A stretch of DNA of 64,000 bases, taken from positions 11,842,001 to 11,906,000 of the forward strand of contig CAIIXF020000001.1 in NCBI GenBank assembly GCA_903813345.2, read 5' to 3'. This DNA is from Owenia fusiformis. Its lineage: Eukaryota. Positions 14,011 to 56,000 of the stretch are shown here, in pieces (within the stretch, counting starts at the first letter, position 1; each line of letters begins with the position of its first letter). The position numbers and the translations under genes were made by a program. Below the pieces are notes generated by a model, which was not told the origin of the DNA, searched no databases, and saw only the letters and a list, made by a program, of their open reading frames with translations.

Positions 14011-17000
14011 ATGGCGAAAGCAATGATAACATTTGTGATATGCATATTGATGATATTTCAAGATATCATGGCTAAACCAATGGAGGTATGTGGATATTTA
14101 GAATTTTATTTTGATTATTAATATTTGGTGGTTGAAAGCCAAGGCCAATGTTATCATACATGAAAAATAGTCTCGTATTGGTCTAAAATTCTCTTTTCTA
14201 ACATTAGGTCTTCCAGGATATTTCAGTTCCTTTGCATTTGCAGTAAAGAACACGAGTAGATGAAATATGGTTTAGCCCATTTTAGATCCTGCAATGCAAT
14301 AGCACTTTTTCCAAGGGTTTTGACATTTTGACCTTGACATTTTGACCTGCACAAGTACCCACCTTGCTATTCATTATTTATAGTTTTTCACTCAACTGTA
14401 TCATCAATTTCACTGTTTCTATAAATAGTCAGTTATCTGTTGTAATTTTAAAATTATGAATGCATATCATACTAAATTAAATTGTTCTAATTGAGTGGAC
14501 TTTATAGGAAGATGATGCTCCGGTCAGGCAAGAATCTATATGGCCAAATGGTGTGGTACCTTACACTATAGTTTCAAAGTATGGTCAGTTCCCCTTTTTG
14601 ACATCTTATCTTGCTATTCCTGTTTGTTAAAACAAATAATCGTCATGGTCTTTCGATATTATTTGATCGAAGGACCAGTTTCAATTTTACCGTTTCAGAT
14701 GATACATAAATTATTTAATCATTAAGCTGCACAGTCTTCTTGTACAAATGAACTCTTCAAAAATAAAAAGAAACGAAATTTTGTAATTTGAAATCTCTAA
14801 TTCAGAACAAAGTGAGGTGGATATTATAAAAGACGCAATGGATAAGATTACAAAACGTACTTCATTAAATGGTGAAGAATGTATCGTCTTTAAACAAAGG
14901 GATTCTGAGGAAAACTTTATTCAAATCTACCACACTGAAGGGTGAGTGGTTACTTATATTATTCCAAAGCATGTTGTTGCTGTAGAAATCGGACTCTACA
15001 ACATTTTTGTTAAGGGTACAGGTATTATTTTGAGCGAAAATGAACCAACGGTACCAAATTCAATAATAGTCACACTTAGTAATGAGGAACCAAGTGAATC
15101 CCCGTATTCTCAGCTTTCCAATGGTACCAATTTATCCTATAGATACGACGTCAGATACTGTACATCGCGGCATTTTACCGCATTTTTACATGCGTACTTA
15201 CTTTTAAAACCGCAATATCTCGACAGCAAAATCATATTTTTCTACAATTTTTCGTCATCAGTTGAACACGTATGTCCATGAAATATTTTGCCTATCAGAA
15301 TTCCAAATAACTGATTTGGGACTTTTCAAATGAGAATCACGCAAGCCGTATTATGCGACTTTCTATGCTAAAACCGGGTGTGTAACATTTTGAAGAAAAA
15401 TGATTTTAATTTTAAACGAAAAATGAAGATAACTTTTTCATTTCTTAACGAATCTTTCTCAAATTTTCACAATATTTATATTCACCATTTTGGAAAAGAC
15501 AAACAGATTCTGTGTGATGACGTCATAATATAACAATGCCAACTTAACGCTTATATTTATGCAAAAAAAGTGTGGACAGGCAGAATTTCGTACCAACAAG
15601 ATATATATTTTGATCAATTAAACATTAAATCGTTTGAAAGGTGAATTATTCTTTTTTGATTCCTGAAAGGCATATCATATTCTATATTTTTATCAAAAAA
15701 CTATATCATTTCGATTAAAATTCAGTCTGTAAGAAGTATAAATTGAAAGAAATATGAAGTGAAGCCATGTGAAAAATTCACAAAATTACGTTTCATTTTT
15801 TGAGTTCAAATATTTCTAATTAAGGGATAAACATTCAAAACTTTCCAATGTTTCAGCATGTTCTTTTAAATATACCCCTCACTACATACAATTAATTTCA
15901 TTTAATTTGAACCAGTATATATTGAGATAGACATCATTTTATCACCGCAACCCCAAGTGAAGCCTTTACAAAATAAGACCGTTATGCCGCTAGCGTATTA
16001 TATGTTCTCCTTTATTATTTATTGTGTTAAATAAAAATTCGAGTTAAAATAAATTACAAATAATAAATTTAACAATCCTTAATATTTTCCCGTATGTGGA
16101 TATCAGTTTAATATGACAAGGGGCACTGTGAGAGTCTAGAAAGACGGTGCGACAACGAGAGCGCAGGGCCGAAAAGCGCGACAAAGAAGAAAACGGGTAG
16201 GGTTTGAAATGTCTACTTTCTGGTGATTCTAATCCTGTATATCGTGACACAACCTTTTTGAATATAGAATTGTATTGAAGCGCACATTAATCTGAACAAA
16301 ACTTGAAGTTTAACGAATATTAAAACTTTTGCAATTACTTGGAGGAGCATTGCGCATATTCATCGCGTAAATCTTTGCATTTTGTCGGTAAAATGAACAA
16401 TTACAATGTTACGCCGTGATGTACAGTATCTGACGTCGTATCATAGTGTTCTTACCTCAAAATGATTCGTTATATGATGTAGGTTAATAGTCACACTTAG
16501 TAATGAGGAACTAAGTGAATTCCCATATTCACAGCTTTCCAATGGTACCAAATTATCCCGTGTGCCCTTACCTCAATACGATTTGTTATCTTTTGTAGGT
16601 CTTTTGTCGTCCTTGGTAACGAGGAACCAAATGCTGAACCAAATAACAAGTAATCATATTTTTGTAATTTTTTTCTTATCGTATTTTCAAATGATGGTCA
16701 AGCCAAGACGAAGTTTATCTTGTTTAAAAGAAGGCTTGTCTGATCCACATGTGGAAAATTTCTGTTTCGTTTTCATGATTATAATTGACAATAATTGATG
16801 AATTTGATAATTTAGCTTTTGTGCTGTAAAAGTATTAACAATATCCTCTACGTATTGAATTCTTTTGACACATTCAGTTGTAGATTTGATTATAATATCG
16901 TTATTCAGAGACTAAATGGAAAAGCAAATTTTTGCATTATCATTGGACCATGGATTTCGTTTTTGGAAGGATGAAACTCAAGATTCGGCCGAAAGTGTTG

Positions 17001-20000
17001 TTTATCTAAAAGCATATGTAAATAGAATCGTATCAAAAGCGTTCTCTGTTTCTTTATACATTAGACCAAATGAAACTTTCAAAGAAGCAAACTTTTTTAA
17101 AGGCTAAACTACGATGATACATGGAGTCTAAATCAAATCTTATTTCAGGTGTTATTCGCGGGTAGGTATGACAGGGAAAGGGCAACCAGTTGCCCTGGGT
17201 AAGAAGTGCATCACCCAGGGAACAGTAATGCATATACTCTTGCATACATTGGGGCTCTGGCACGAGGAGAGCAGGGCAGACAGGGACAAATACATCGACA
17301 TTGACTGGAGTAACATCCAAGACAGTTAGACATTTAGCACATATAGAGAACACGGTACCCATGTCAAGCTGCGCGCCTACTTAGGCGCGCAGTTTGTTTC
17401 GATCACAAACTGCGTGCCTAAGAACATTGCATCATTTAAGTTGGAGTCTGTATTTTGAAACGTAATTTAAAGACATTTATCCTGCATTGTTTTCTTGTTC
17501 AATGCGCTCATTCTGTGGCGAATATACGAATCTTGCAAATACTAGCAAAAACTATGTGCAAATGAATCTAAGTTTTAAAACATATATATTAATGGCATTT
17601 TCGTCACTGATTTAACGGGAATTTATACGTAAATCGATCTAGCACTTTAAACATAAATGACAAATACTTTAGACTCGTTTTATATTTAATTCCTTACACA
17701 TTTATCATGTATAATTCAAAATATTTCGAGATAAAACAGATAATCAGGAGATTAAAAAGAAATAAATCACAAACTGCGCGCCTATTTTAGCCAGAAATTA
17801 CAAACTGTGCGCATACACTATTAAAACTACATATATATTATCATTGGAATTTCTACAGAGGCACGTGTAGGTGTTTTTCATGTAGCTTTGGAAATTTTGC
17901 TTTATCGTCAGATTTTATGAGATTTTCATATTGAAAGTCAAAATGTATAATAGAAGTGACAAGTTGGGAACGAAAAAAACTTTTATTTTCAGATCACCAT
18001 CTTGGTGGATGGACTCCCATAGTGTTTCAATTATGGGGTTCTACTATTAGACACATATGTGCCTTGTATGGCGCTTATGTTTTCTAATAATACAAAACAA
18101 GCTTGGATAGGCAAGCAGTTTGGAAATATTAGGCACGCAGTTTGGGAAATACAAGTGAATATAGGCGCGCAGTTTGACAAGAAAAATGTTTAAATCACGT
18201 TTATGGCGTATTATCGTTTTGAATACAAACTTTGCTGATTTAATCAGATGGAGTGATCCTATATATTCTAGCATACACAGACACAATGGCTGAATAAACG
18301 GCAAATGACAATAAAAAGACATAGATATAACTTTACACTGTAAATTTTGAACACAGAAGTTACTTAAGACCCTTATATTGAGATAACTAGGTTTACATCG
18401 GGAAAAACATTGAGTACTATGAGTAAATTAAGTTCATCTTCACAGAATGGTACTATCTTTAGAACGAGACTAACCTTGTATTTTTCGTATTTTGGCTCTT
18501 TTTGGGAGTCGTGTCCTCCCCGTCTCACATTTTGAAATATGCGCGCAGTTTGTCAGAGTTTCAAACTAGTAGGCACGCTGCTTGACATGGGCATCGTGGA
18601 GAAAACGATACTAGATATAGTGGTTAAAACAGTATTCACACACATCACCCCATGCAGACAGATCGCCTAAAATTACATTCGCATGATGCGAGACTCGAAA
18701 TTCACCAGGAAAGTAGAAAAAATTTGTCACCCATGAAGCAAATTAATTTTTACTGCTTAATAAATGGTCAAGGTTAGAAACATTGAGTTCTATTCGTATG
18801 AGAATAGCTTGACGTCTTGATATTTCAAGGTAACACGTTCGAAAAGTGATTAGATAGCGGTGATCGAAATTACGATGTAAAGATAAAACCGTAATGAAAT
18901 ATTTGTAGATTTCTTTGAAAAACTTAGAAATATAATCACATATAGAATTTTTCAAAACAGAAAAACATGTATAAAATATAAATAGTAAGGCCTGCAGGTC
19001 AGATTCCCCCTGGTAGCATTAGCATTGGTCTCATACATGTCATACAATTAATATTTGAAACACAACTATTATTCGATGATCGGACAAGTATGATGCTACT
19101 TTATTAATATCACATTGAAGTGCATAGTGATTTTGTATCTTTTAGGTGACTTAATAGAAAATATTTTGCAATGTGTGAAAAAAATTAAGCCCAACACTCA
19201 AAACATTGTGACTGCTTCATTCCACTCAGATGTTATTTCTTAAACTTTGCGTCCCCCTGCGTTATTAAACCCAATACAAGATCATTTCTCGTGATATCAT
19301 TTTATGGCCTCGTAGCAAATATCTGATATATTGCTCTTTTAACCACTATATCTAGTATAGTTTTTTAAAACAGCTGTTCTACATAAGCTAGGCAAGTGTC
19401 AATGGAAACGATAACTTACAAAATTAATTGACTTTAACATAAACTTTATTTTTTGACATAAACTTTATTTTTTGACATAAACATTATCTAATCATTCAGG
19501 CTTGAAAGTAAACAGTGAGAATTAGCCTAATCAATCAATTAATGACAATAATTATAGTATAATCATTTTCAATTTTTATCATGTTTTTCTTCAAATGATA
19601 TTTGATCAACAATTCATGTTAAACATTATAGGCCATGCCGGGAATTTTGAAGCTTTGAACATTGAGCAGTTTGACATGCCCTATGACTATGATAGCATCA
19701 TGCATTCCACCTCGACATCATTCGCCAAGGTATATTACTCTAATTGAATGTTACAGTGCTACGAATCTTCAATCAAGATTGACATCTGACTTCTGGTTGA
19801 TCTCTCATGATATTTCTAAAATTCAACATAATATGAAATCCAGCTTACAATCCAAAAGTAGAAAAGAGAATGGAAGGTTGTAAAAGATTCTGGAGTCTTG
19901 AATTGAACCTTGTTCGATTTCACCTATCTAGTTATTTTACCTTTGTAGGATAAAAAGAATCCCACTTTAATACCAAGAGGAGATGCTACAATAGGCCAAA

Positions 20001-24638: not shown

Positions 24639-25484
24639 TAACCTACAGTGTAAGGTTTTGAGTGACGTTCAAAATGGGTCAAGATGACCTACATGAAGCT
24701 AGTTACAATTGGTACATTTATTGTCCGAATTCAAACCTCCATTTCAATATACTGGAATCCTAGATATAGTATAAAGCCGAAGACATGATGTATAGGTATT
24801 AGACTGAGGTTTCTTTAACATCACTGTTTGAGATCGTCTAACTAATTCAGAAATCTAGAAATCCGGATTCAGAAATTAACAAGGGAGGGGCAAATTTTGA
24901 GTCTGGAAAAAAATGTCCGCCCTTTTTGGGCCCTAAAACCAAAAATTGGACCCAAATTTGACAAATTAATGCCCATTTTAATAAATTGGCCAAAAAGGCC
25001 TAAAAATACCAATTATGGCCAAAAAGGTCCATTTTTGAGGCCCTACAAAAGTTTAGGACCCAAAAACTAAAAAAAATCGGCCTATATCATTCTTCTGCAG
25101 GTCGGAATTTTTATTTTTTAGGTCTGATCCATCTATTGAAAAACCAAAGCAATTCATCTGACCTTGCACCGAACTAGCTCTCTTCCGTTACCAAGAAATA
25201 GGAACATTTCAGGAAGACCGAAAGGGATAACGAGTGTAAATAGGAAGCCATCAAGTTTTTAAAGCATGCCAATGTTGTTATTCATTTCTGAATATAGAAG
25301 TTATTGAATATTTTTAAATAATGCAGAAATAGTTAAATTCTCTCACAAATTTACCCCCAACTCGCTTCTATCATGTCTATCCCTCATTTGGATACTACTA
25401 ATTCGGATGACCAAAATGAGCTGACACCAATGGATCTCACTTAGGCAAATTGAGAAATAACATGGTGAAACTTGAACCTCAATA

Positions 25485-26609
25485 TATAGTAGCCCGGACA
25501 GAATTGTTCAATGGTCACTTTTTCTTTAATAACTTTTTTAATTTTCAGTATTATCATAATCTGATCACATATTTGAAAACTAGAGTAAAATTCTGACATA
25601 CAAAAAAAATATTTAAGGAACATCTCTTAATTTTTTGATATTATAGGTGTTCATAGTATGACTGACGCAAATACAAAATTCATCATTTTGCCTCATATTT
25701 GTTCAAAATGGCGGCATATTTTGTGAATTTGAATGTTCAGTTGAAAGCTAATATTTAAAGATTGTCATAGGACTATAGGGCCATGCTGCCACCGTTGCAA
25801 TCCTGATGTAACGCAGCAACTGACCAGTCATCAAATACAAGAAGTCAAATCCCTCCAAGGGTATATGAAATCAACTCTATTGAAATGTTCGGGGTTGTGT
25901 TCAAGAGGATGGGAAAAGGTGGCGCCCCAATGTACGGGATGTGATGAGAGTAGGTTCTTAATATTTTCAAGAGCTCCAAACAGCCATCTCAGAGGCCATT
26001 GAAAAGCTGAAGAACAATCACATGCATGCCAAGGCCCAAGGATGGGTTGAGAGGCGTGTGACTGGGAAAGATTACAAACTGTGGCAGTATGACTCTATAG
26101 GTGCCCAGGTTCAACGAACTAGGGTTGCTTATCCACTACGAGTAACAATGGAATGACCAAAAAACTTTAAGTGCTGCGACCTTAGCAATATACTGTACAT
26201 ACAATGTACAAACCTTTTTTAGTGCTTGTATACATACAAATCAATTTGAAACAAAAGGTTATAAATGCAGTCCTTACCTCATACCAAGGCAGCAGTCTAC
26301 ATGATTTCGTAGGCCTATGACATTTCTTGAATATTAACTTTAATTTCAACTGAACATTCAAACAACAAAACATGACGCCGTTTTTGAACAAATATGAGAC
26401 AAAATGGTGAATTATGTATTTGCGTCACTCAGTTATGAACACCTATAATACCAATAAATTAAGAGATGTTCCTTAAATATTTTTTTTGTATGTCAGAATT
26501 TTACTCTAGTTTTCAAATAAAAAATGTAATCAGATTTTGATAATACTGAACATTAAAAAAGTTATTAAAGAAAAAGTGACCATTGAACAATTCTGTCCGG
26601 GCTACTATA
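25485..26609. mobile_element. Long-TIR (about 290 bp) element with a GC-richer internal segment
   Basis: 25485-25772 is an imperfect reverse complement of 26313-26609 (TATAGTAGCCCGGACAGAATTGTTCAATGGTCAC...). Confidence 0.8.
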
Positions 26610-26742
26610 TTAAAGGGACAAGGTGCGTAAATGAAGTATCACTTTTGATCTTCATAGTATTTCCAATGGATTAATAAGTACCCGATCTTTCATTTGACAC
26701 CAAAAACAGCTCAAACAGACCACATCAGAGTTGACACTAGAT

Positions 26743-27882
26743 CACGGGGGATAAGCAAAACGAGGGCGAAGCCACGGACTGCGACTCGCGTAATTCAAAA
26801 CGAGGTTACAACGCATTATAGCTGAACAATGGCGGTAAGTCCAAACTTAATTTGGAAGGCATGTTAGGATTTGGGGTAGATTATTGGTTTGGATATTCTA
26901 CAGAATAGCTAGTATGTTCCAGTCGGTGATCAACATATTCATACTCCACCTGCAATGGCATTCTTGGTGCTCGGCTGTCCAATAGTTTAGCATGAACACA
27001 AATGAATTCGAAATCTGCCACAAAAAATGTAATTTTGTCAATATTTGTCCCTAATATACCGATTTAAACAAAGGAATCAGAAATGACATCGAATTAATAT
27101 AATTATTCATGTTCTGTTGTTACAATTACATCTTCGTGTGATATTTGGTAAGCGGAAAACGTACAATTACATAGAAAATTGGAATTTATAATAGTCGCAG
27201 TCCATCCATCTGCCCAACGCAGTCCGCGACTCAGTGTTGCTTTATATCTGAAGCTGAACACAATCACAGCCAAAGGTAGATAGCACAATGTGTGTACAGG
27301 TGTGGCCGAAATGGAGCAACTTTGGACAAAGGGCTATTTTAATAGACCTACATCGTGTCTCAATCCATTCTGCAAATATATACAAGCTGTCAAATACAGC
27401 TGAAATCACGAAGTTATGGTAGCTAGCAATTGATGGACTGTTGGAAAGATCATCCAAAATTACATTAACTCACCAACTCTCCAATTATTTGATATTTTCC
27501 TGATATCTTAAATACTAGTTAATGTACCCTTCCCCAACAGCTTTTATTGCATCATCAAAAAGTTAATTGTTTCGCATTTCTACTTCTTATAAAAAGTCTC
27601 ACCACTATCCAATTATCTATATATTTAACCCTATCCACAAATTGGTTTGTAATAAACATATTACGTTGTCATCTTGCGCTTGACTGTTCTGCCAAATACG
27701 CTATTGAATTGCCATATTCAGTTCTAGGTCTTAAACGATACAATATAGCAATTTGGGACATTGATTCAGGTAATAGATATATGTTAATCAACGGATGTCC
27801 CTCCATTTTGGCGCTGGGCTGCGGTGTAAAGTTACGCGAGTCGCAGTCCGTGGCTTCGCCCTCGTTTTGCTTATCCCCCGTG
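26743..27882. mobile_element. Non-autonomous DNA transposon with CAC...GTG ends, perfect 51-bp TIRs and 5-bp TSD (Transib/RAG-like signature)
   Basis: TIR CACGGGGGATAAGCAAAACGAGGGCGAAGCCACGGACTGCGACTCGCGTAA at 26743-26793 and inverted at 27832-27882 (51/51). TAGAT flanks both sides (26738-42, 27883-87). Confidence 0.88.
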
Positions 27883-28612
27883 TAGATCATGAAAAAATAT
27901 TTTTGATCTATCAATTTATAGATGTCAAGTTTTTAGCAATATAGAAAGATGGCATTGTTGTTTGCATTAATTTTCCATTCATTTTTGATAGGATTTTCAA
28001 CCATACGCCATCTTTTAGTCCAAGAGTTATTTAAAAACATACACTTTGTGAAAAGTGGTAATTCACTTCTTTTGATATCTGAACTTGAAATGCTGTTTTC
28101 TATGCGAGTAAATTTTTTTTTCACTTCAGTATTGACATTATAATAACATTACATGTAACCATGGGCCCAAAGAGTGACCCTCCGCATCTGTAGGCTACTG
28201 CTGTCTCAGCGAGCACTCTAGGCCTAAGTACTGTGTGAGCATTAAAAGACTAGGCTATCAAAAGGTTTCCATTATGCTTCTTAGATCTAAAAATATAATC
28301 GTCTGCTGATATTTCATTCATATCTACAGACAAAAAAGATTTATTTTGATGGACAAAATTTAGCCGACGTCGCAAATAATACGTTCGTATTTTTAAAGCA
28401 ACAGTGCAAGTTAGTGTCCTTATGTCGTAAAATGATATATATGATACCAATCTGATCGTCTAAGTCTACCAATGGATCAACAGCTATATTACGTTTATCC
28501 ACAGTCATAAGATATCATAAGAATTATTGATTATAATATATACCTCGTATAATTCGAAACCTCGGATTTCGGAAATAATAGCTCTAGATCTACTTCCTGT
28601 TTCTTCAGCAAA

Positions 28613-31600
28613 ATGGAAAATAAAGTTCTTGAGTACAAGAAGTATTTGGAAAAATATCCAAATGGCGACAAGGTACAGCTTTCAAACTATTTAAATGTGT
28701 TGATGAAGCAATTGCAACTATACACAAGAAATTTCAATTCAAACAGAAACGTATGTGGTTGTTTATTTAGAAGCATACGGTAGCATTTGCTTTAAATAGG
28801 GACTATAAAAAAATTAAAAAAAGTCAAGGACTTCGAATTAGACTACTTTCATATTCAGAAATTTGCACATATAATACTCTTTTAGCCGTCTTGGACAGAG
28901 AAATTGGTAACTACTTAAACACCCTGAGTTGTACACTGGGTCACTAGCCTACAGCTGGCCTTTTCATAACGGGGCTTCCCTGGGATGAGTTTGGCTGGGA
29001 CTATCAACAACATAGGCCCCGGGAACATGTATAAAATAGCGAGTCTACATCTGTATTACTACTTCTTCTTTTAGGTGGTCATCCCCAACCAGAATCTTAC
29101 TGCATTAAGGTCCGATTCGCGAATTTTAAGCTTTGCCAGCTTACCAATTATCACTCAAAAGTAGGATCGATACTTCGTTCAACTTTTGTGTGTATTAATA
29201 AATTTTTATACTGTCTATCTCTAGCTTTAAATCACCTGTTAATTCGAAATCATTCCCTTTCGAATTTTGTCCGGACCCGCAGCCATCTTGTTTTTGTCAT
29301 AGCTGGTTGGGGTGTCACTCCGGTAAATACCACTCGCGGTGTTTTTAATACTTTAAAAACGAAGCCATGCCAACTTCTATGGTGTGTATAGTAGGTTTAA
29401 GTGTATGCAATATGGAACCAAGATGTCGACTCGCTATTTTATACATGTTCCCTGGGCCTATGATCAACAATTTGACACAGACGGGGCTGCCCTGGCTATG
29501 ATGAGTTTGCCTATCAGACTCTTGACTTATCTAATATATAAATACAGTCAAATGGCCAAGACTTATAGTCACGGTCTTGTGAGCGTTGATTACATTATAT
29601 TTCAAAAGTCGAAAAGTGGTGATGTTATTTATGCATATATATTTCTTACCTCAGTCGATTATAAACAATGTCAGAAATGTTAATCCAAAGTCAAAAGAGA
29701 CACGATTGTCTCATATTGCAGTAATATACACTTCAATCTTTAAATCAATCAGTATTTCAAAATGTTTGCCATCAGAGCCACAAATCGTGAGTGTTACAAA
29801 CACATCAATGATTTCACTAAGAATTGGTGTTGTATTGGACATGTTGTTAGGTAAAATGCACTTGGAAATTCCTGCGAGTGAACAGTTAGACTATATCCTC
29901 TAGTCTGAAATTTTTTTTGAAATGTTCTGACTATAGCCCATATATGTTAAAATTTGGGATTGAAAATTATTTGTTTACTGTACATAGGAAGTGCCATTCA
30001 AAATGGCCGATTGGGTAAATTAATTTGCATATTTGTTACTTCCCCTAGCTTCATTTCCATTTGACAATATGCTGTGTTACTTTTTATAGCATTTAATTGT
30101 ACCTTACTACTTCATTGAATTGTTATAATGCTTATTTTTTGGAAGTGAAGTTTCCTAAAATTGATAATTGTGTGCAGGAAATTTCCTGTTTTTTTCCCAC
30201 AGGAGGGACATAATGATCAATAGACTGAATTCTCAGGAAATTCAGTCTATTGGATATAGACTAAGTGATCAGTGACAGCGGGCAAATCTGAAATGACTTG
30301 GAGCAGTGCTTCCACTTTAGCAGCAATGTCTCTTAGCTTCTTTGAAGAAAGGCTTTAATGTCACCTTCTTTTCTGTATAAAAATTACACCATCATGAAAT
30401 AAACCAAAACTTATAACTAAAATATTTGCTGGTACTGTTCATTTTAAATTAGATTTCATATGACTATGACCTTACCAATCACCTATTTTGTATTGTTCTT
30501 TTAGGTCATGCGAGTGTTGGAGAAACTTAAGAAAATGGAACTGCCTATAAAAGTTTTACAGGTATGTATGATCAAAAAATTACTCAGTATCATAAATCAT
30601 ATTGATTTGTTTTTGAATTTCATCCCGAGTGCCCATGTTGAAAACAAACAAAGAATTCATATTGAAGAACCATTCACTATCTTAATACAGGTTGACCCAA
30701 AAATGTAACACTGTCATTTTGGAATAACTTAATTTTGGTAGAATTTTCTTGAATCTTCTGGCTTACATAGAGAAGTCAATGAAGCAAACAGTGTTGTATG
30801 TATATCTCATCTTAATCTTAAGAATTTAGAGAAATCATGTTTTCCATCTAAGCATGCCCTCCATTGAATTGAAAGTTTTGGTAAGCTTTTAGGACTACTC
30901 AGAATACTCAGAAAAATATGTGTGAAAATTAAATTCGAGCCGTCAACAGTTGTAGAAATATCAGGTGCTCATACAATATACAGTGATCATCCCAGCATTA
31001 AAGCAAGTGGGCGCAGTACCAACCTGAGATTTTATAAACAGGCTTGCACCCACTTGAGATTTCATTTGCATCCACTTGAAAATGAGAAAAATCATGTAAA
31101 ATGGGCATATTTTGACCAAAATTGGACTGAATTGTGAAAATGAGAATTTTGCACCCACTTGAGAAAAATTCCTGGAGAGAACACTGATGTACAGGTTGTA
31201 ATCATTTTTGTCACCCTGTATATTATAAAGTGCTGTATGTATGTGTATACAAGTATTTCATTGTATGATCCTAGCCCCATAATTAAGTCCTATACTCTAC
31301 TGAAATGTAGTTATTTGTCTCTGTTGATAGGCAACCAGTATTGGTAAAACACTGAACAGCTTCAGAAAGCGTGATGGTGAAATTGGTCTCAAAGCAAAGG
31401 TGATTGTTGCTGCATGGAAAGAAATGGTTTGTCGAGAAGAGGCTGCCAGAATTGAAGCAAAAATCAAGAAATCACAATCTAAGACAAAACGTGATTCGGA
31501 AAAACAACACAAGTCTTCAAAACATAAACAAAGGGAAAGGTTTACACATGATGATGTCACTCCTGAAGTTGATGAACGCAGAGTAAAGACAGAGCCGGAA

Positions 31601-34600
31601 ACAAATGGATACGAACCAAGAAATGCAAATTTATCGATAAAGCAGGAGAATGATTCGAGTGCATTGACTATAAAATCTGAGCCAAAGGATGAAACTTATC
31701 CTGTGAGTCTTCAACCTACCATTGTGAAGCAAGAAAAAGTTGATACAGAGGATAAAACTACTATAAATGATAGTATTCAAATCAAAAAGGAAAAGATTGA
31801 CAAAGGTTGGCAAAATGACTCCACAAAAACGATTGCATCTACAAGTCATCAAAAACTTCAACACTCTGATACTAAAAAAGTACAGCGCACACCCAAAAAG
31901 AGTAAAACGATCAATCCATACAGTCAAACCTCTTTTGATGACTACTGTAAGCAGAGTTTTGAACAAGAGTTCAATGCATTCATTAGTGAAGAAGCACTAG
32001 ATGCAGAACAAAATTCAACGGAACAATTTTTCTCACCAAGATACTGTGACCAAACTGCAAGTGACAATAGATCACCTTATACATCTTTAAATGAAAGGGA
32101 TAATGATTTAACAAGCAGGAGGGACCACACTTCATCAAACAAAGCAGATGACATATCAAATTATTCTGATGAAAATGACTATAACTCAGCAAGTGAAAGT
32201 GAGCAAATATCAGGGAGTAGAAGTGAAGGACAATCTGGAAACTCTGATGTCAAATCCAATTCCAAAAATAGAACTGAATTTGCATCATTGAAAGATGATG
32301 AGAAAAACAAATATGAATCATCGAGTCATGACAAGCACAAATCATCAAGTTATGACAAGCACAAATCATCAAGCAAAGGTGACCATAAATCTTCAAGTCA
32401 CGGTGAGCGCAAATCCTCAAGCAAAAGTGACCATAAATCCTCAAGTAAAAGTGACCATAAATCCTCAAGCAAAAGTGACCATAAATCTTCAAGTCATGGT
32501 GACCATAAATCTTCAAGTAAAAGTGACCATAAATCTTCAAGTCATGGTGACCATAAATCTTCAAGTAAAAGTGACCATAAATCTTCAAGTCATGGTGACC
32601 ATAAATCTTCAAGTCATGGTGACCATAAATCTTCAAGTAAAAGTGACCATAAATCTTCAAGTCATGGTGAGCACAAATCTTCGGGTAAAAGTGACCACAA
32701 ATCCTCAAGCAAAAGTGACAACAAATCTTCAAGTAAAAGGGACCATAAAACATCAAGCCAGGGTGACCACAAATCATCTAGTCATAGTGACCATAAATCA
32801 TCCAGTCATGGTAACCATACATCTTCAAGTCATGGTGACCACAAATCTTCAAGTAAAAGTGACCATAAATCTTCAAGTCATAGTGACCATAAACCTTCAA
32901 GTCATGGTGAGCAAAAATCCTCAAGTAAAAGTGAACACAAATCTTCAAGTAAAAGTGACAGTAAATCATCTAATCATGGTGACCATAAATCTTCAAGTCA
33001 AAGTGACCACAAATCTTCAAGTAAAAGTGACAGTAAATCATCTAATCATGGTGACCATAAATCTTCAAGTCATAGTGACCAAAAATCTTCAACTAAAAGT
33101 GACAGTAAATCATCTAATCATGGTGACCATAAATCTTCAAGTAAATTAGAAAATGAATCATCAAGTGAGCACAAATCATCTGGAAAAGACAATAATCAAA
33201 AATATTCGAATGAAGAGCATTCCAATCAATATTGTAAAGATGAAGACAAAGCTGTACATGAGGTATACATTGACAGTAGTCAGAAATCGTCAAGTACATT
33301 TAAAGAAAATTCATCCATCAACAATGATCTTGCCTCATTAAGCAGTCAAATAGACCAACTTTTGAATTCAAGTGATAACCCCTTAAAGACAGACAACAAT
33401 ATAAGTGAATCTAAACCTTCGGTATCAATACACAAACATAAAAAGATTACAAAGTACCATGATTTGAGTGGATCTGAATCAGATGATGATCAACAAAACA
33501 AAAGGGCTAAAGAAAACAATAAAGCTCGGGCACATATGATAAACGACAAAGCAGTCAGTGAAACGTCTGGTGTAAATGAGAATCTGATTGACCCAAGTGC
33601 AATAGATGAAGGAGATATCGGTCTTTCTTTTGACGATTTCTTAAACTACGATGCTGTTGCTACAGGGAAGAAAGTCAAAAAGACGAATGAAAAAACAAAA
33701 GAAGAATCCAGGTTAAGCATGGAAGCAATAAGGGAAAAGTTTAAAGTCAAGAAAAAATCCGATGGAAATAAAGATAGCTCTCAAAATGACTTAAATGATA
33801 TAGGATCTAATGAGTCAAAGAAGCATGACAGCTCAAGTAGTAGTAAGCACAGCAGTAGTAAAGACACTAGTAGTAAGCACCATAGTAAAGACCACAGAAG
33901 TAAAGATAGCAGTGGTAAAGATGACAGTAAACACACCAGTAGTAAAGACAGTAGTAGTAAACAAACTACTTCAAGCAGTAGTAAACACAGCAGCAGTAAA
34001 GACAGTAATAGTAAACACACTAGTTCAAGCAGTAGTAAACACAGCAGCAGTAAACACAGTAGTAGTAAACACACTAGTTCAAGCAGCAGTAAACACAGCA
34101 GCAGTAAAGACAGTACTAGTAAACACAGCAGTAGTAAAGACAGTACTAGTAAACACACCAGTTCAAGTAGCAGTAAACATGGTAGTTCAAAAGACCATGA
34201 TAAAAAACGTTCCAATTCATCAACACATCATAAAAGCTCAAGTAAAGACAAACATTCGAAGTCTGACTCTAAGCATAAAGACTCATATAGAGAATCAAAG
34301 AAAAATCATTTACTAAACATGGGGTCTGAATCAGATGCTGACTTTATGGACTCTGACTCCAACTCTGCTCTACTGTTGTGTGGAGCTAAGAAACGTAAAG
34401 CTGACCTTACTAAGTTGGATGTCCCTCCTCCTCCAACAAAGCAGGTATATCTATGGGAACATTTATAAAAGCATTTTAAGGTTAATATTTAGATTGTGTG
34501 TGCAACTTAATCTATTTGTAATATTTTTATAGAGCTGTTTTTATGTCGCCACCACAATTACCACCAAGAAGTGCTTCTTGTGACCAGCATTTAGTATCTG

Positions 34601-37600
34601 TAACTAATGTACTACCTGTCTTAGAATTTTAGGCAATATACAATACCTGTTTTTTTATTTACATACTTTTATACTATAATGCAACCAGGTTATGTTTTGA
34701 GTTTGTATTACTTGTATCTCCGAGGACTTATAAAAAGTATAATCTTGTATATTTTAGGTAAAGCTGTCTAGTAGTGATATATTTGGAACACTCCCGGAAA
34801 TCTCCCCCAACTACAAGCCCCTGCCTTACCTACCCATGGGTATACCGTCCAAAAATAATGGTAACATTGTTTAACAACATAAAACATGATTTAGAAATAA
34901 TTTAATTTCTTAAACTTAGTCAACAACTTGTTAGGAAATTGATAAAAGTAATACATTATCCAAGCAATAGTACAAAAATGATACATTATCCAAGCAATAG
35001 TTCAAAAGTGATACATTATCCAAGCAATAGTTCAAAAGTGATACATTATCATTATCCAAGCAATAGTTCAAAAGTGATACATTATCCAAGCAATAGTTCA
35101 AAAGTGATACATTATCATTATCCAAGCAATAGTTCAAAAGTGATATATTATCCAAGCAATAGTCAAAAAGTGATAAATAATAATTATCCAAGCAATAGTT
35201 CAAAAGTGATACATTATCCAAGCAATATTTTCATTTTGTATTGTTTGGTATCAAATCATAAATATTTATTTTCTACTCCAAGCATTCAACGAGAAGGATA
35301 GTGTATGCCAAGCAAGTATATATGTTTTACAGGTACATATAACTAAAGGCATTTTCTAATTTTTCTTACATTCCAGAATCTATCCCTGTGGACATAGGCA
35401 AGAAGAGTCATTCCCGAACACAGGTCTATTCTGGACGTAAACAAAACCTCACCGAAGTTCCAAGTCTCTTTGATGCATGCATGAGAGTTGTTATGGACAA
35501 TATTGATGGTAAATACATTTTATCATGCCATCTTTTGATATTTCTTTTTCCGTACTTGAACTAAAATCCTGATTCTATATTCATATAGACAAAGAATGCC
35601 ACACCCATATGTCTATTAATCCATTTGTCTGGAATCAGATTTACATATCAGTCTGATTCAGTTCATATTTTATTATGATTAATTCACAACTTATATTAAT
35701 AGGTGATAATATTGACTTTCATGATATCAAAGATAATTGCCAATGATTAGCTTGTATAAGGGCAATTATCTAAGTGCATTACATGTACATCTATATTGTT
35801 CAATAACATGTCCCCTACCCTAAACAACAGCTGTCCCCTAAACAACAGCTTCGCGCAAGTTGTTACACTTTGGATTCTCATGTTATGTCATGTGGTGAGC
35901 ACCAGTAATCGGTTTTGATTTTTTCAGATATTGATGGGTTTCCAACATACATCCCATATGATGTTATCAAGCCTGTATTGCAGAAGTGCAATCCTTCCCA
36001 GCTCTATAATATTGAAGACTGTAACCCAGTAAGTAATGCAAGTTATGTCACTACTACAAGTGGTAACATATTGTTATGGTCTCCAACTTTTTTGTGGACA
36101 TTGTTCGGTGGTTGGTGTTTGGCATTTGGTTGTTGGTATTCGATGGTCGACATCTGTAACAACCAAAATACTAATAATAAAGTAGGTAAAAATTGGATTT
36201 AACAAGGTCAGAGAGAATTGGGAAAAACTGATTATCCTCCTGACATGCTGTTTGTCCGTCCATATGTTCATCCTTCTGTATGGATGGTAACTCTAAAACC
36301 AGTTTATGGAATTGATTTAAATTTAAAGGCTTATTCCTTATGTTAACAGAACCTCTGCTCGGGAATGAATTGCCAATATGGCTGCTTAATTCAAATTGGC
36401 AACCTTATTTTATGAAAAATGGAATCCTTGATAGCTCAAATACCAACCAGTTGACTTATTTGGTTCATATTTCATAGGCCAATGCTTTATGGATGTAGGA
36501 AGTCTGCTCAAGAAGGAATTCCAATATGGTGTCACATTGGTGTAGATTTTGCCAAAAGCAGACAATACATCCTGGTTATTTCTATTATGTATGTAAAAAA
36601 TGATGAGTGATTTGATAAAGTTGGATGTTCTGGATTATGTCACCAAAATTACTAGTTGTGTTCCTGTTCCCGCATTACAATTTTCAGTATTTCAAAATTC
36701 AGTGTTTGACATTTAATGTTCATAATGTCTTCTTCCAGTATCTCATTGAGGACACGGAGCAACTGTGGAAGTTACATGCAGAACGAGACTTCAGAAACAA
36801 AGAACCAAATAAAGATGACTGTGAAAGTTATAGAGAAATGTACCTGGTACGGAAATACTGTTTTTAAATATGATAATGAGTCCATACATATAACTTTTGC
36901 ATTTTATATTCGAGATTTTTTATTTGAAAATATTGTGACAATGTTTTAATACTTTGGAGCTCTGTATGTCATGGATAAACTCTTCTACTCATATCAACAA
37001 AGAATTATTTTTTTGTATTTGTTATAGAAACTGCATGACGAGCGTGATGCAAGGTTGAAAACGCTTACCAGTTCCATAAGTAGAACTGCCCAAAAATCCC
37101 AGAAAGATGGTAAGACATACAGTAAATTTGGCTATTAGACATTACATGTTGTATTGGTTTTCAAAACCTAGTGTGATATGTTGATAAATTGATTTAGAGC
37201 CCTCAGTAAAATGGATATTATCCAGAAATAACATCTGCTGTATCATGTGTGAAGAGACTCAAAACATTATCAGACATAAAAAAACACTAAGTCGTCTCAG
37301 CCTAATAGGAAAATAGCCAATAATATAAGTGTAAAATTCAATGGAATTATCAACAAGATGCATTTAGTATTTTTAGTACCATGCAACAATTTTAAGGTAT
37401 TTTTATTTTATTTCAGTGAGGAAGGCTAAATTAGCATATGTTGATACATTTGTGAAACCCCCTAGAGAAGTTTTAAGAAACCAGAAGAGATATGGCACGG
37501 CAGGTCCTGTTGCAACAGATCCTTTGTCCAGACTGTCAAGCCATGGGGGCCAGAAGTCAAAGCCAGGACGGAGTGTAGGTCAACATAGAAATCGTGAAAT

Positions 37601-41062: not shown

Positions 41063-44000
41063 TCCAAAGATTCTCAAAATGTCAATGGTAAGTTTGTTTT
41101 TAGATTTTCTGCTATATCATGGCAATACCGTGGTACTGAATTAATTATAAGCATTATCCTATCTCATGTCCCATCACAGGTCCTTCAATTTTAGTGAAAT
41201 TATATTAAATTTTGGTAGATTTCATGAGAAAATGTATGTATCCTTTACTTCCGGGTGTAATAATTGAATGTGTCAATCAATGTAATTTCATTGGAGGCTG
41301 ATGGGAAAGAAGTAGACAATCTAGTCAACACAGTATAAAAGATCTTTTATATTGTGTTTGATACTTCTTTTCCCTCAGCCTATGGTCATATTCATAAACC
41401 ATGAATCGGAAAATGCAACATCGTTGTCAATATCTCCATAAAATTGACAAGCCATGATGCTTCAGTTGGCATTGGGTTTACGAATAAGACCGACCACCGC
41501 CCAGTCACTCTCCACAGTTCGGTACATTAGGTCGTCGGCTGTTGGTCTTTTACATACAGATGAATAGATGTAAAATTAGAAGAGGGAAATAAAACTAAAA
41601 ACAAAAGTTCACCATCACTGCTACACACCTAGTTACACAGACGTATCATCAGTGTATCATGGTGGAACTACTTCCGGGACTAGGTTTCGGTAAGATTTTT
41701 TTATTTCCCGATTTACACCTACTTATAAGTCACATTGTGGATAATAATTTGGCTCGAAGTTAAGAAAGATAGTCTAGTTTGAGAATGTGTCGATGGTTTT
41801 AGGTTTTATATGTTAACGAATACACAATTCACGTATTTAGTCCCTCGCTTTTGTTACACTGACGAACGACCAATATCAGTGTAATATTGGCAATATTAAT
41901 GCCAATCGTCAGTGTAACAAAAGCGAGGGACTAAATGTGTGAAATGCGTCTTCGTTTACATACCAAACCTAAAACCATTGACACATTCTCAAACTAGACT
42001 ATCTCCCATAACTTCGAGCCAAATTATAATCCACATCGTGACTTATAAGTAGATGTAAATCGAGAAATAAAAATATCTTACCAAATTCAAATCCCGGAAG
42101 TAGTTCAGCCATGATACACTGACGATACGTCTGTGTAACTAGGTGGGTAGCAGTGACCATGTGAGCTAAGATTTTCGACATCTAAAAGGTCACTCGACTT
42201 TTTTGTGATTTTGAATCACAGAAAGCATTCTGAAGTTTCAAATTGGCGCCATGTTTAATTTTTGTCATCCGCCTAATGTTAGACGGTGAACACCGCCTCT
42301 AATGCGTTAGATTGTCGTATGGACTTGCATTAGATCCAACACGATCCTCAGAGACCCAGAATGAATGCACCTAGCCTAATGTATACCACTTACCTTTTAT
42401 TGATTCTTTCATCATAAGATTCTTTTGTAAGTACGACAATGTGAATTCATTTTTTGGAAGTTTTTTTGCAAAAAAGTCGAGTGACTTTTTAGATGTCGAA
42501 AATCTTAACTACAGTATGTAGGAAACTATACTCTAAAAACCTTCCTGTTCGTCAGTCAAAATATCATTTTTTAGAAAAAGTTTTAATGCCTCAATTGAAT
42601 CATTTGGTCTACTTACTCATATGTACTTCCCTTATTTTTGAAGTCAAATGCTCGTCCATTCCATAGTCAGTAATAGTGATACTCGAAATTGGATCCAAAT
42701 GCTGTAAGAAACTCAGTCATTTTCTTCAGAAAATCTTCTCTTGCCCTCTGTCTGAATGACGTCAGAGTTCATAGAAGTTCAAACTCTTGACAAAATTCAT
42801 GGAATCTCCTCTCATTTCAGGGAAACTACTCTGTTCTAAATGACTTGCTTCTTGCCTTTGAAGATTGCTTCAAACATTTTATGATCAATTGATTTAAATG
42901 AGGCAAAGAGTTGACTTATTACAATAATCATTTTATGATCAATTGATTTAAATGAGGCAAAGAGGTGAATTATTACAATAATCATTTTATGATCAATTGA
43001 TTTAAATGAGGCAAAGAGGTGAATTATTGCAATAATCATTTTATGATCAATTGATTTAAATGAGGCAAAGAGGTGAATTATTGCAATAATCATTTTGTGA
43101 TCAATTGATTTAAATGAGGCGAAGAGGTGAATTATTTCAATAATCATTTTGTGATCAATTGATTTAAATGAGGCGAAGAGGTGAATTATTACAATAATCA
43201 TTTTATGATCAATTGATTTAAATGAGGCAAAGAGGTTAATTATTACAATAATCATTTTATGATCAATTGATTTAAATGAGGCAAAGAGGTGAATTATTGC
43301 AATAATCATTTTATGATCAATTGATTTAAATGAGGCGAAGAGGTGACTTATTACAATAATCATTTGATGATCAATTGATTTAAATGAGGCAAAGAGGTGA
43401 ATTATTACAATAATCATTTTATGATCAATTGATTTAAATGAGGCGAAGAGGTGAATTATTACAATAATCATTTTATGATCAATTGATTTAAATGAGGCGA
43501 AGAGGTGAATTATTACAATAATCATACATAGACCAATAGGCTAATCAATGTAGATATCTTCTATATTTGGATTTCGTACCTGTTGTTATTTGTAGTGGTA
43601 TCAAGTGATGAGGAACCTGATACTGGCCCCTCAGAGAACCAGAAGGCAAAGGAAATAGCTCTGATTGATCCAAATGTCATAGTGAGTATCAGAATTTGTA
43701 TAATCAAAGGTGCTGACTTGATTGAACTTGATTGTGATCAATTTCTTGAGAGAATGTATAAATACGACAAACAATTATGACGTGTACGATAGATTGTGTC
43801 TCATGCCATCTCTCTTGAAAATAGTTTGAGTGTGTATTCACAAGAAAATATTTCAACTAGTGATGTTCTTTTTATTATGTAATCTATTTTTATGCGGTAT
43901 CTAGTGACATGTTGTCAGTTGATGCAAGTTATGATCATGGTTATCATGCTAATAAGCTCTACCACTATTGATATTCTGAATGAAAACCCTCTTTAGTAAA

Positions 44001-53000: not shown

Positions 53001-56000
53001 GTAACTGCAGATATAACACACAGAACTCCCTCCACGATGGACACAAACACAAGCACTACATTCATTGCTATTCTGGCCTCCTGAGAAAAACCATGCATCA
53101 TTATAAGTTAATGAAAACACAGAATGAAATCCTGTGCTAAGGGCTGAAGTGAAAAAGTCAGTCCACCCCAGTGGGGATCAAACCCACGACCCCTCACTTT
53201 CCAAGCAAGTGCTCTACCACTTAGCTACAAGACCGACTGGCCTTTTTGCATCAACATTGCATATATAGCATTGCAGCCATGTCTTACATGCCCATGCGAA
53301 AAGGGCATGTACAGGAGTACAGTATAAGTCCTTGTGCCCCCCTACACAGTACACTTGCTCCACATACGGTTGTGAAGTAAGTAGAAAAAAGGGAGTCCAA
53401 AGAATTGAAGCAAGACTAATATCCTATTGATTGCACTTTGAGAACTTAATATAAGGAAAAATTATTATTTAAAGTACAAACCAGTTAGTCTCTCTTTATC
53501 TAATGTACTCATCTAACAGAATGGAAATACTCACATTTTCCTTGCAGTGTCTGCTAACTACTGCATATGCCCATGAAAAATTACACATCACTCTATTATC
53601 ATTTGGGGAGTATATGATGAAATTATGCACATCAACCACTAGACCATAAGATGCTATTATGAAGAGGCTGACACATGCAACACACGCTGTCACAATAGAC
53701 ATCACCAGGAATGTGACAATCTGCAACAGAAAGAATATGTCACTGCTGCAGAAATAGAGTGTCCACATATTTCATGGTCAGTGTATTGTATTTGTACTTT
53801 GATGACTATGCCCCCCCCCCCCTATCAAAGTATTCAAACATATCCAAACATAGGGTATAAGCAGATTAAAGTGAATTCATATTGTTGTATTTCTTACCAG
53901 CCACTTTAGCTTTCTTTTGCCTGCAAAGACACCAACTACACCAGTCATGGTAAAGAACTGGAAAAAATAACAAAATGTTTGAAAAATGGTATCTGCTTAA
54001 ATGTTAGGGTTACTTACTCATAATTTATGATCATCTATTAAGAAGTATTCCCGGTGCATGTTGATTCAACATGTCAGGTGGTTATACTCTCTGATCATTA
54101 TGATCTCAATCAATTTTCTCTACTTTAGTGGCAGAATATATAGTATTGTAAAAAGCATACTAATCTTATATTTCATCTTAATTTCATTATATGGTAAAAA
54201 ATTGTTGTGAGATAACTGATCTGCTTTTAAGGTGCAGTGGTACTTAAAGACCCTAAACATGATGACATAACTTTTTCAGCCCTCTGAAAATGTGACTTGA
54301 AAATAGTTAAAAGTAGGAGCTTAGGAAAGGTCACTGAACAGAATCTTTTGATTTTTAAAATCAAAAGATTCTGTTCAGTGACCTTTCCTAAGCTCCTAAA
54401 ACAAACCAAAAACCTGAAAAGGTTATTTCATCATGTTTATGGTCATTCTGACCATGGACATCTTGATCCTTGTCTTGTAGATGATATGTGGAACTATTTG
54501 AATTGACTTGAGATCAAAAAAGAACTATGTTATCTTTGTTCAAAAAATGTTTAAAAATGCCACATTTTTTGTCACTTCCTGTTTTGTCATTTCCTGTTAA
54601 GTACCACTGCACCTTAATGTCACCACCACAAGTGATGACATATTGTTAAAGTCCAACTTTTTTTATGGATGGTGTACTGGGCACTTTAAGGAGACACTTT
54701 TTGATTTTCCATTCAAACCAGTCATTATTATATCAATCCAATGTATTTCACTAAGTTGTCGTCCAATGGTTGTACTTACACATAATCCACACCATATACC
54801 AGCCCCATGGTTAGCCCCAGCTGATCTCAAACCAATGGCAGCTGCGCCAAATGCTATAGCAATGATTCCAAATATGATCATAAGATATCCGAGCCAAATT
54901 GATCTTCTTCTATTGTAATGTTTCACCTGACCACACCATGGTATATTGTTTATATTATATGAAATACTCCGCTCAAGTTTCTTACTTTCATAAGACTCCA
55001 TTATTTTGTCTTGCTAAACGGTTATGCTGAAGTGGTTGCCGGATTTGATCAATTTTTTGTTGAGGTTGAATATATTCAGGTATTTGAATATGAGAGTATG
55101 TTCTTATACATAACCATGTGGAATCTTGTACTGTTATCCAGGGTTTGTACTCTTAACTGTGACAGCTGTAAAGGTGTTTTTATAAGTATCTTTATCAATA
55201 ATCATCAATTCCTCTCTGAGCTATTTTATTGTTCGGTATTGAGTAAAGAAAATTTTCTAGTATTCAACCTGTGAATTCCAGTTATTTCATGATATATAGC
55301 AGGTAGCAATGCGATATTAAAGTAAACAAGGTTATTATAACATGCTAGTGGTAAGTGTATTGAAGAGAATAGTGAATATTTTCAACCACTTGTTGCTTTT
55401 TATGCCTTGACCTTCTGCATAGACTCACAAAGTGATATTGTTTGTTGGGTGACGTTTTTTTACTCTCAAATATTGAAAACAGAAAACAAAAGTAAACACC
55501 ATATACAGTAAACTTTTAAATGTTTGGAACTACTTTGAATTTAAAAAATAAGCAATCAAATTACTATATTGCAACAGTATATAAAAAAAATAGAAACATA
55601 TGTACTTGTCCTAACTTTTGTATATTTCAGATAGTTATGTATAATGTGCAATAAAGCTGTGGCCTTTTGTAATTTAGGGAGTTTCAGCCATGTTAATTTT
55701 TCCGAAAATAACATGGCAGAGAAGCATCAAAATATTAGAGGCCACAGATATAATAGCTAAACTACAAAACAAACTAAAATATACAAAAGTTAGGACATGT
55801 ATAATAAATGTTTCTACTTTTACATTTACTGTTTCAATATGGTCCTTTGATTGCTTATTTTTTTTATTCAAAGTAGTTCCAAACATTTAAAATTTTACTG
55901 TAGCGCATGTAGTTAGAGCAGCAAAACATAAAGTTTGTTGTGGAATTAATAAATGTTAAGAAATTGCCTGAAATATATTTGGGGATTCACTTTCCTCATG

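Follow-up and report, generated by a model that had tools for sequence, protein, structure and literature searches.

Results and Discussion

Gene content of the window

The region analyzed here (the window) is a stretch of 64,000 nucleotides, AT-rich with 31-40% GC, that carries intron-split animal genes. These are LRR genes, a gene for an FkbM-type methyltransferase, an Elongin A-like gene and astacin exons. The nearest clusters of the 809-amino acid LRR protein are mostly molluscan. All 242 stop-to-stop open reading frames of at least 55 amino acids present in the 64-kb window were subjected to a domain scan. The domains found were LRR, FkbM methyltransferase, TFIIS/Med26, Elongin A, Tcp10_C and astacin, together with two low-complexity matches, and a transposase domain was detected in none of the 242 frames. 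A frame of 1045 amino acids at positions 31331-34468 has a TFIIS/Med26-type start and contains long Ser/His/Lys-rich tandem repeats with units of 24 and 72 nucleotides (32363-33145). Elongin A exons lie downstream of it, at positions 35909-36202 and 36619-36864, and frame and exons together make up an Elongin A-like gene whose low-complexity expansion is unusual.

Boundaries of the 1140-bp element

Positions 26743-27882 are occupied by a non-autonomous element of 1140 bp, referred to here as F2. Its left terminal inverted repeat, which starts with CAC, covers positions 26743-26793 (forward strand), and the right one covers positions 27832-27882 (reverse strand). The two arms start with CACGGGGG, are 51 nucleotides long and are 100% complementary to each other. 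A 31-nucleotide segment of the end is present in exactly two places in the 64 kb and was not found once in 100 shuffles. The pentanucleotide TAGAT is present on both sides of the element, at positions 26738-26742 and 27883-27887.

Raw reads from one sequencing run (X16) and contigs from three others (X1, X4 and X9) were aligned to positions 26443-28182. The four runs are from the same organism as the window. The stretch occurs in runs of a single organism and, to a small extent, in metagenomes from marine plankton and seawater. All four runs included molecules in which position 26737 is joined to position 27883, with 1145 bp (1140 + 5) skipped and with seven letters at the joint, TAGATCA, that fit either side. 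This empty form was supported by 27 X16 raw reads with 26 start points, seven X1 contigs, one X4 contig and one X9 contig. Since the joint has a single TAGAT, the site had one TAGAT before insertion, and the inserted DNA consists of exactly 1140 bp, from CAC to GTG. These results indicated that F2 is mobile, that its boundaries are exact and that its insertion duplicated 5 bp. Perfect 51-bp CAC-ended inverted repeats and a 5-bp target site duplication, TAGAT, had been claimed in a preliminary description of this DNA made from the sequence alone, and both were confirmed. The flanks of F2 are repeated and have a much higher depth than the element; therefore, the molecules with an empty site may represent paralogous copies of the target rather than alleles of the same site.

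It is very improbable that F2 is no transposon and that its structure results from an artefact of the assembly, or from an inverted repeat and a 5-nucleotide match of the flanks that both arose by chance. The window holds a single copy of F2, as self-BLAST of the 64 kb recovered the element alone, and this would agree with an artefact or a coincidence. Against both stand the lack of chance matches to the 31-nucleotide end in 100 shuffles, the fact that the contigs and reads from four other runs reproduce F2 and its ends, the existence of a precise empty form, and contigs in which the ends of F2 are joined to different flanks or to different interiors.

The DNA on both sides of the element belongs to a repeat. 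The X16 depths given here and below are the sum of both mate directions over an aligned stretch that includes no sure single-copy control. The left part of the host repeat (26641-26742) had a depth of 733-960 and a loose end at position 26641 (428 reads), and the right part (27888-28118) had a depth of 328-486 and a loose end at position 28118 (207 reads). The flanking depth reached 960 at positions 26675-26732 and 364 at positions 27893-27950. F2 is thus inserted within a copy of a high-copy repeat, where it duplicated TAGAT. The repeat is about 330 bp long (26641-26742 plus 27888-28118) and its depth is far above that of F2. The major variants of this repeat differ at the insertion site (for example, ATAAATTATC), and therefore F2 resides in a minority subfamily. 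A piece of a different, higher-copy repeat lies inside F2 at positions 27441-27481. In this piece the X16 depth peaked at 321 (bin 27429-27486), and loose ends were found at positions 27441 (286 reads) and 27481 (226 reads).

Copies, coding content and age of the family

F2 is multi-copy. X4 contigs with k-mer depths of 58-72 span all 1140 bp with six other letters and 18 gap letters, and two X4 contigs continue into sequence that is foreign to the window, one of them with 519 nucleotides beyond the left end. The other, of 1599 nucleotides, has an alignment confined to positions 27792-27882, and eight X9 contigs all stop matching at position 27792. The X16 depth was 36-155 in the interior bins of F2 vs. 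10.6 in the lowest bin of the flanks, which is the last one. At the left end the two terminal bins had depths of 143 and 155 and the following bin one of 85, a step located about 105 nucleotides inside the element, and at the right end it rose from 49 to 219 around positions 27777-27834. From the depth steps and the contig breaks it follows that relatives with other interiors share about 105 nucleotides at the left end and 91 nucleotides at the right end. The left end module covers positions 26743-26848 (forward strand; the inverted end plus about 55 nucleotides) and was delimited by X16 depth. The right end module covers positions 27792-27882 (reverse strand; the inverted end plus 40 nucleotides) and was delimited by X16 depth and by the breaks of the X4 and X9 contigs. 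The shared modules include the inverted end plus the subterminal motifs described below.

Among the best-supported differences, the copy of F2 in the window departs from the X1/X4 majority by at least four substitutions (27260, 27409, 27413 and 27681) and at least two insertions or deletions (27428 and 27718). X1 and X4 have the same version of the end as the window. X16 and X9 have another version, which departs from it at end positions 27 and 32, and the changes are mirrored at both ends. In the X16 reads, the left end has C in place of A at position 26769 (121 of 122 reads) and G in place of A at position 26774 (148 of 151 reads), and the mirror positions at the right end are changed in 191 of 199 reads (27856) and in 226 of 238 reads (27851). 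The mirrored end variants that distinguish the sets of runs suggest that the family turned over after the lineages had separated. Such variants are expected if the copies in each lineage derive from their own recent master copy. The F2 family is multi-copy and young, as can be seen from its perfect ends and duplication and from the few differences between this element and its copies in other individuals.

Ten open reading frames of 43-120 amino acids are present in F2 and none has a credible Pfam match, the best E-value being 0.076. The preliminary description had proposed that F2 is non-autonomous, with a decayed interior, and that it was recently mobilized. The first of these proposals is borne out by the ten open reading frames, and the second by the perfect ends and duplication, the near-identical X4 copies and the mirrored end variants across run sets. 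With inverted ends, a target duplication, non-coding DNA and several copies, F2 has the properties of non-autonomous inverted-repeat (MITE-like) elements, although its 1140 bp exceed the length of a classical MITE.

Subterminal motifs and asymmetry of the ends

Inside the inverted ends, F2 carries a pair of related ten-nucleotide motifs, TTACAACGCA at the left (26806-26815, forward strand), 12 nucleotides beyond the inverted end, and TTACACCGCA at the right (27820-27829, reverse strand), two nucleotides beyond it. Both were identified from the sequence and the alignment of the ends, and they are located where the preliminary description had placed them. In a shuffle test that was selected after the motif had been seen, a nine-out-of-ten motif match within the first 40 nucleotides inside both ends was obtained in 96 of 5000 shuffles, and the pairing of the motifs is therefore only weakly above chance.

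The gapped alignment of the two ends revealed the origin of the difference in spacing. Directly inside its inverted repeat the left end has ten extra nucleotides, which are a copy of its own positions 14-23. This extra direct copy of CAAAACGAGG, found at the left end alone, lies at positions 26796-26805 (forward strand). The right end has a degenerate copy of the same motif, CAAAATGGAGG, at positions 27800-27810 (reverse strand), as seen in the sequence and the end alignment. Another short segment of the end, GGACTGCG (end positions 34-41), is present in two inverted internal copies at positions 27196-27203 and 27218-27225, both on the reverse strand, that is, in the orientation of the right end. 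The ten-nucleotide offset is a difference in motif copy number past the symmetric 51-nucleotide end. The preliminary description had viewed the offset as one of about one helical turn and had pointed to the bipartite, asymmetric structure of recombination signal sequences (RSSs) and ProtoRAG ends. The ten-nucleotide insertion or deletion is real, but it consists of an extra copy of a motif and does not represent a heptamer-nonamer spacer. In RSSs, in some insect Transib elements (PMC1131882) and in the hemichordate RAGL-A, as far as the available portions of the published descriptions go, it is the spacer between the heptamer and an A-rich nonamer that differs, and the offset of F2 is of a different kind. 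The second CAC of the end, at end positions 31-33, was considered as a functional inner heptamer and was ruled out, because the X16/X9 variant has a change at position 32.

Other CAC-ended elements in the window

The 64-kb window was scanned for inverted ends of the form CAC...GTG of at least 14 nucleotides, with at most two mismatches and an exact flanking duplication. Three elements had a 5-bp duplication and none was found with duplications of 3, 4, 6 or 8 bp; the mean in 30 shuffles was 0.0. When all 64 starting trinucleotides were allowed with a 5-bp duplication, there were six matches, half of which were the CAC elements and the other three marginal (14-19 nucleotides). A relaxed scan returned the same three elements at 5 bp and 0-1 chance-level matches at other lengths. 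A scan for inverted repeats and duplications without constraint on the ends was not used for comparing duplication lengths because of the palindromic pseudo-duplications that occur inside long inverted repeats.

The two additional elements are F1 (17351-18598) and F3 (41616-42155). F1 is 1248 bp long, with inverted ends of about 31 nucleotides, CACGGTA... and CACGATG..., and the duplication GAGAA. F1 contains about nine copies of a motif of 14-16 nucleotides similar to ACAAACTGCGCGCCTA, and their distances from the two ends are mirrored (left, 58, 422 and 453; right, 49, 425 and 457). The ends of F1 are asymmetric by nine nucleotides, a robust extra segment at one end that directly follows the inverted repeat and belongs to a copy of the element's own repeated motif. 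With an astacin exon on either side (17132-17326 and 19526-19744), F1 is probably intronic. F3 is 540 bp long and nearly all palindromic, resembling a foldback element, with ends that start with CACTGCT..., are inverted over more than 47 nucleotides and are symmetric over at least 110 nucleotides; its duplication is ACCAT. A tandem array with 12 copies of a 54-bp unit (42875-43525) is located 700 bp downstream of F3.

Two of the three CAC families thus have ends that differ by nearly one helical turn, ten nucleotides in F2 and nine in F1, and F3 has no such difference. In both cases the asymmetry is a difference in motif copy number beyond a long symmetric end. The 35-bp insertion sites of F1, F2 and F3 have a GC content of 29% each (n = 3). 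Past the CAC, the three elements have no sequence in common. Therefore, the evidence that they provide is at the level of the superfamily, and it concerns a class of enzyme that cuts at CAC with a 5-bp stagger.

Relationship to Transib and RAG-like transposons

Transib and RAG-like (RAGL) transposons are relatives of the enzyme that assembles the vertebrate antibody genes. To our knowledge, active or recently active examples are few outside insects and deuterostomes. F2 is a further member of the already known class of transposons with CAC ends and 5-bp duplications. We favor the reading, with a probability of roughly 0.55, that it is a young non-autonomous cut-and-paste transposon of this CAC...GTG/5-bp class, of the Transib type within the CACTA-Mirage-Chapaev-Transib (CMCT) group, to which the RAGL transposons also belong. 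Judged by published structural criteria, the most likely mobilizer of F2 would be a putative RAG1-related (Transib or RAGL) transposase, a proposition that we rate as slightly better than even.

According to the available portion of PMC1131882, the defining features of Transib elements are termini of CAC, duplications of 5 bp, the heptamer CACAATG and, about 23 nucleotides further inward, a nonamer rich in A. F2 has the CAC...GTG termini and, in the one copy of the family that could be read, the 5-bp duplication. Its heptamer, CACGGGG, coincides with the consensus at four of seven positions (CAC..G). In the published nonamer, which follows after about 23 or 12 nucleotides, positions 5-6 are AA (PMC1131882). 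The corresponding nucleotides in F2 are GA at end positions 35-36 with the 23-nucleotide spacing and GC at end positions 24-25 with the 12-nucleotide spacing, and the only run of A in the end is at positions 15-18. The lack of a nonamer does not exclude a Transib, because a functional element of this type, the active moth Transib, has ends that are described in the accessible part of PMC4840297 as showing little or no nonamer similarity. A preference for GC-rich targets and the existence of non-autonomous members have also been reported for Transib (PMC1131882, in part), and the 29% GC of the three insertion sites (n = 3) does not show such a preference.

The closest parallels to F2 in the portion of PMC1131882 at hand are TransibN1-N3, non-autonomous Transib elements from Anopheles gambiae, with which it shares the CAC...GTG termini, the 5-bp duplication, the non-coding DNA and the insertion into other repeats. 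The same portion describes Transib families in which, as in F2, the lengths of the ends differ by about one helical turn. Unlike in TransibN1-N3, the resemblance of F2 to the CACAATG heptamer ends with CAC..G, and an A-rich nonamer is absent 12 or 23 nucleotides inward. It also departs from Transib in its AT-rich sites and in having its asymmetry beyond a 51-nucleotide symmetric end.

The comparison with RAGL transposons was similar. These have CAC termini and 5-bp duplications and occur in molluscs, including non-autonomous ones in the pearl oyster, and the consensus of their ends in protostomes, as given in the available part of PMC7204232, is CACTWMCAAACKTYKBB, with a run of A at positions 8-10. 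F2 shares the termini and the 5-bp duplication with the protostome RAGL elements and their non-autonomous derivatives of oysters, pearl oyster and ribbon worm (PMC7204232). Its end agrees with the consensus at 5 of 17 positions, and positions 8-10 are GAT in place of the run of A. Moreover, the inverted ends of RAGL elements are conserved over only about 13-17 nucleotides in that source (PMC7204232), whereas those of F2 are identical over 51 nucleotides, and unlike in RAGL transposons no RAG1L or RAG2L gene was seen in the window. The identification of F2 as a RAGL/Transib element in the preliminary description thus stands as far as its non-autonomous nature, the CAC and the 5-bp duplication are concerned, but its ends fit neither the Transib nor the protostome RAGL consensus.

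Other superfamilies

Numerous short motifs that are repeated near the ends, as in F1 and F2, are a feature known best from the CACTA and hAT superfamilies. It is possible, albeit clearly less probable than a Transib-type origin, that F2 was mobilized by another lineage of the CMCT group or by an undescribed superfamily that makes 5-bp duplications, with a transposase that acts on subterminal repeat arrays in a CACTA-like manner. F2 has CA..TG termini, and the CMCT group has these termini and duplications of 2-5 bp in common (PMC12730594, available text); in one classification scheme, Chapaev is placed within the Transib superfamily (PMC4411706, in part). Short subterminal repeats, both direct and inverted, are another feature that F2 shares with CACTA/En-Spm and Chapaev elements, and in this respect the motifs repeated in its ends and interior are joined by the roughly nine mirrored copies in F1. 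The AT-rich targets and the mismatch with both the Transib nonamer (PMC1131882) and the second block of the RAGL ends (PMC7204232), in the portions of these sources that describe them, add to the case for such a lineage. So does a survey of mollusc genomes in which, in the part available, one Transib was counted among 14,275 DDE/D transposase open reading frames (PMC10294476); the near absence of Transib transposases from molluscs in this survey lowers the prior for a classical Transib. However, the duplications published for CACTA, Mirage and Chapaev are of 2-4 bp and those of 5 bp belong to Transib, as stated in the accessible portions of PMC1131882 and PMC12730594, and the duplication is exactly 5 bp in all three CAC elements of the window.

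Subterminal short repeats are also typical of hAT elements, and inverted ends of 51, about 31 and more than 47 nucleotides, as in F2, F1 and F3, are long for this superfamily. These two properties bear, in opposite directions, on another reading, that F2 is a non-autonomous member of hAT5, a group of hAT elements with duplications of 5 bp rather than 8 bp. We regard it as unlikely. The hAT5 elements occur in invertebrates (PMC9004415, PMC12730594, in part) and in bivalves hAT is one of the best represented superfamilies (PMC10294476, in part). As their duplications are of 5 bp, a duplication of this length is no longer unique to Transib (PMC9004415, PMC12730594). On the other hand, the third terminal base was always G in 22 hAT families (PMC1131882, legend of Fig. 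S7, a rule that predates hAT5), and it is C in all three elements of the window. The terminal trinucleotide of F2 is CAC and not the YAG of hAT elements, and its inverted ends are much longer than theirs. The search of the literature returned no description of hAT5 termini, so that the test of the terminal base refers to hAT in general.

The Ginger2/TDD elements were also considered, and TDD-4/5 have a 5-bp duplication. They were rejected because their termini are TGTNR and those of F2 are CAC (PMC2836005, available portion).

Proposed mobilization and significance

For the Transib-type reading, the mobilization of F2 can be outlined from its structure. A transposase encoded elsewhere in the genome would bind the 51-nucleotide ends and the short repeats located in or beside them, namely CAAAACGAGG, GGACTGCG and TTACAMCGCA, and would cut at the CAC border. 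If the enzyme were RAG1-related, cutting would proceed via a nick and a hairpin on the flanking DNA. Integration would use a 5-bp stagger. A more specific proposal, that F1, F2 and F3 are mobilized by a RAG1-related (Transib or RAGL) transposase that is active now or was so until very recently, and that this enzyme reads bipartite ends whose inner block is shifted by one helical turn between the two ends, appears improbable. Searches with the F2 end, in which letters that differ among the runs were replaced by N, had 0 matches in metagenome contigs (two patterns), viral contigs and prokaryote genome contigs, and four pieces of the end had no occurrence in the searchable literature.

The presence of a young F2 together with F1 and F3 within 64 kb means that some transposase that cuts at CAC with a 5-bp stagger was recently at work in this genome, and the three elements provide precise end sequences that can serve as bait for finding it. 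If the enzyme is RAG1-related, they are natural substrates for studying the evolution of end recognition and end asymmetry. If it is not, a 5-bp duplication combined with CAC ends is unsafe as a diagnostic of Transib here, a point that matters for automated repeat classification. An inner block displaced by one turn, if true, would be a pairing asymmetry similar to the 12/23 type outside vertebrates, insects and hemichordates. The importance of F2 would rise sharply with an intact RAG1-like partner or with a functional one-turn asymmetry.

Other repeats and minor features

Small DNA transposons are dense in the window. Just upstream of F2 there are two inverted arms of about 300 bp (25484-25775 and 26310-26610), 88% identical and about 535 bp apart, which are possibly another long-armed inverted-repeat element. 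Three further candidate inverted-repeat elements were noted: one at positions 29011-29462, with 42-nucleotide ends and the 8-bp duplication ATCAACAA; one at positions 15142-16442, with 32-nucleotide ends and ATA; and one at positions 55520-55886, with 41-nucleotide ends and TTAA. Positions 53163-53234 (reverse strand) have an Rfam tRNA match of 38.5 bits with no ARAGORN call, and may be a tRNA-derived repeat (the head of a SINE) or a pseudogene.
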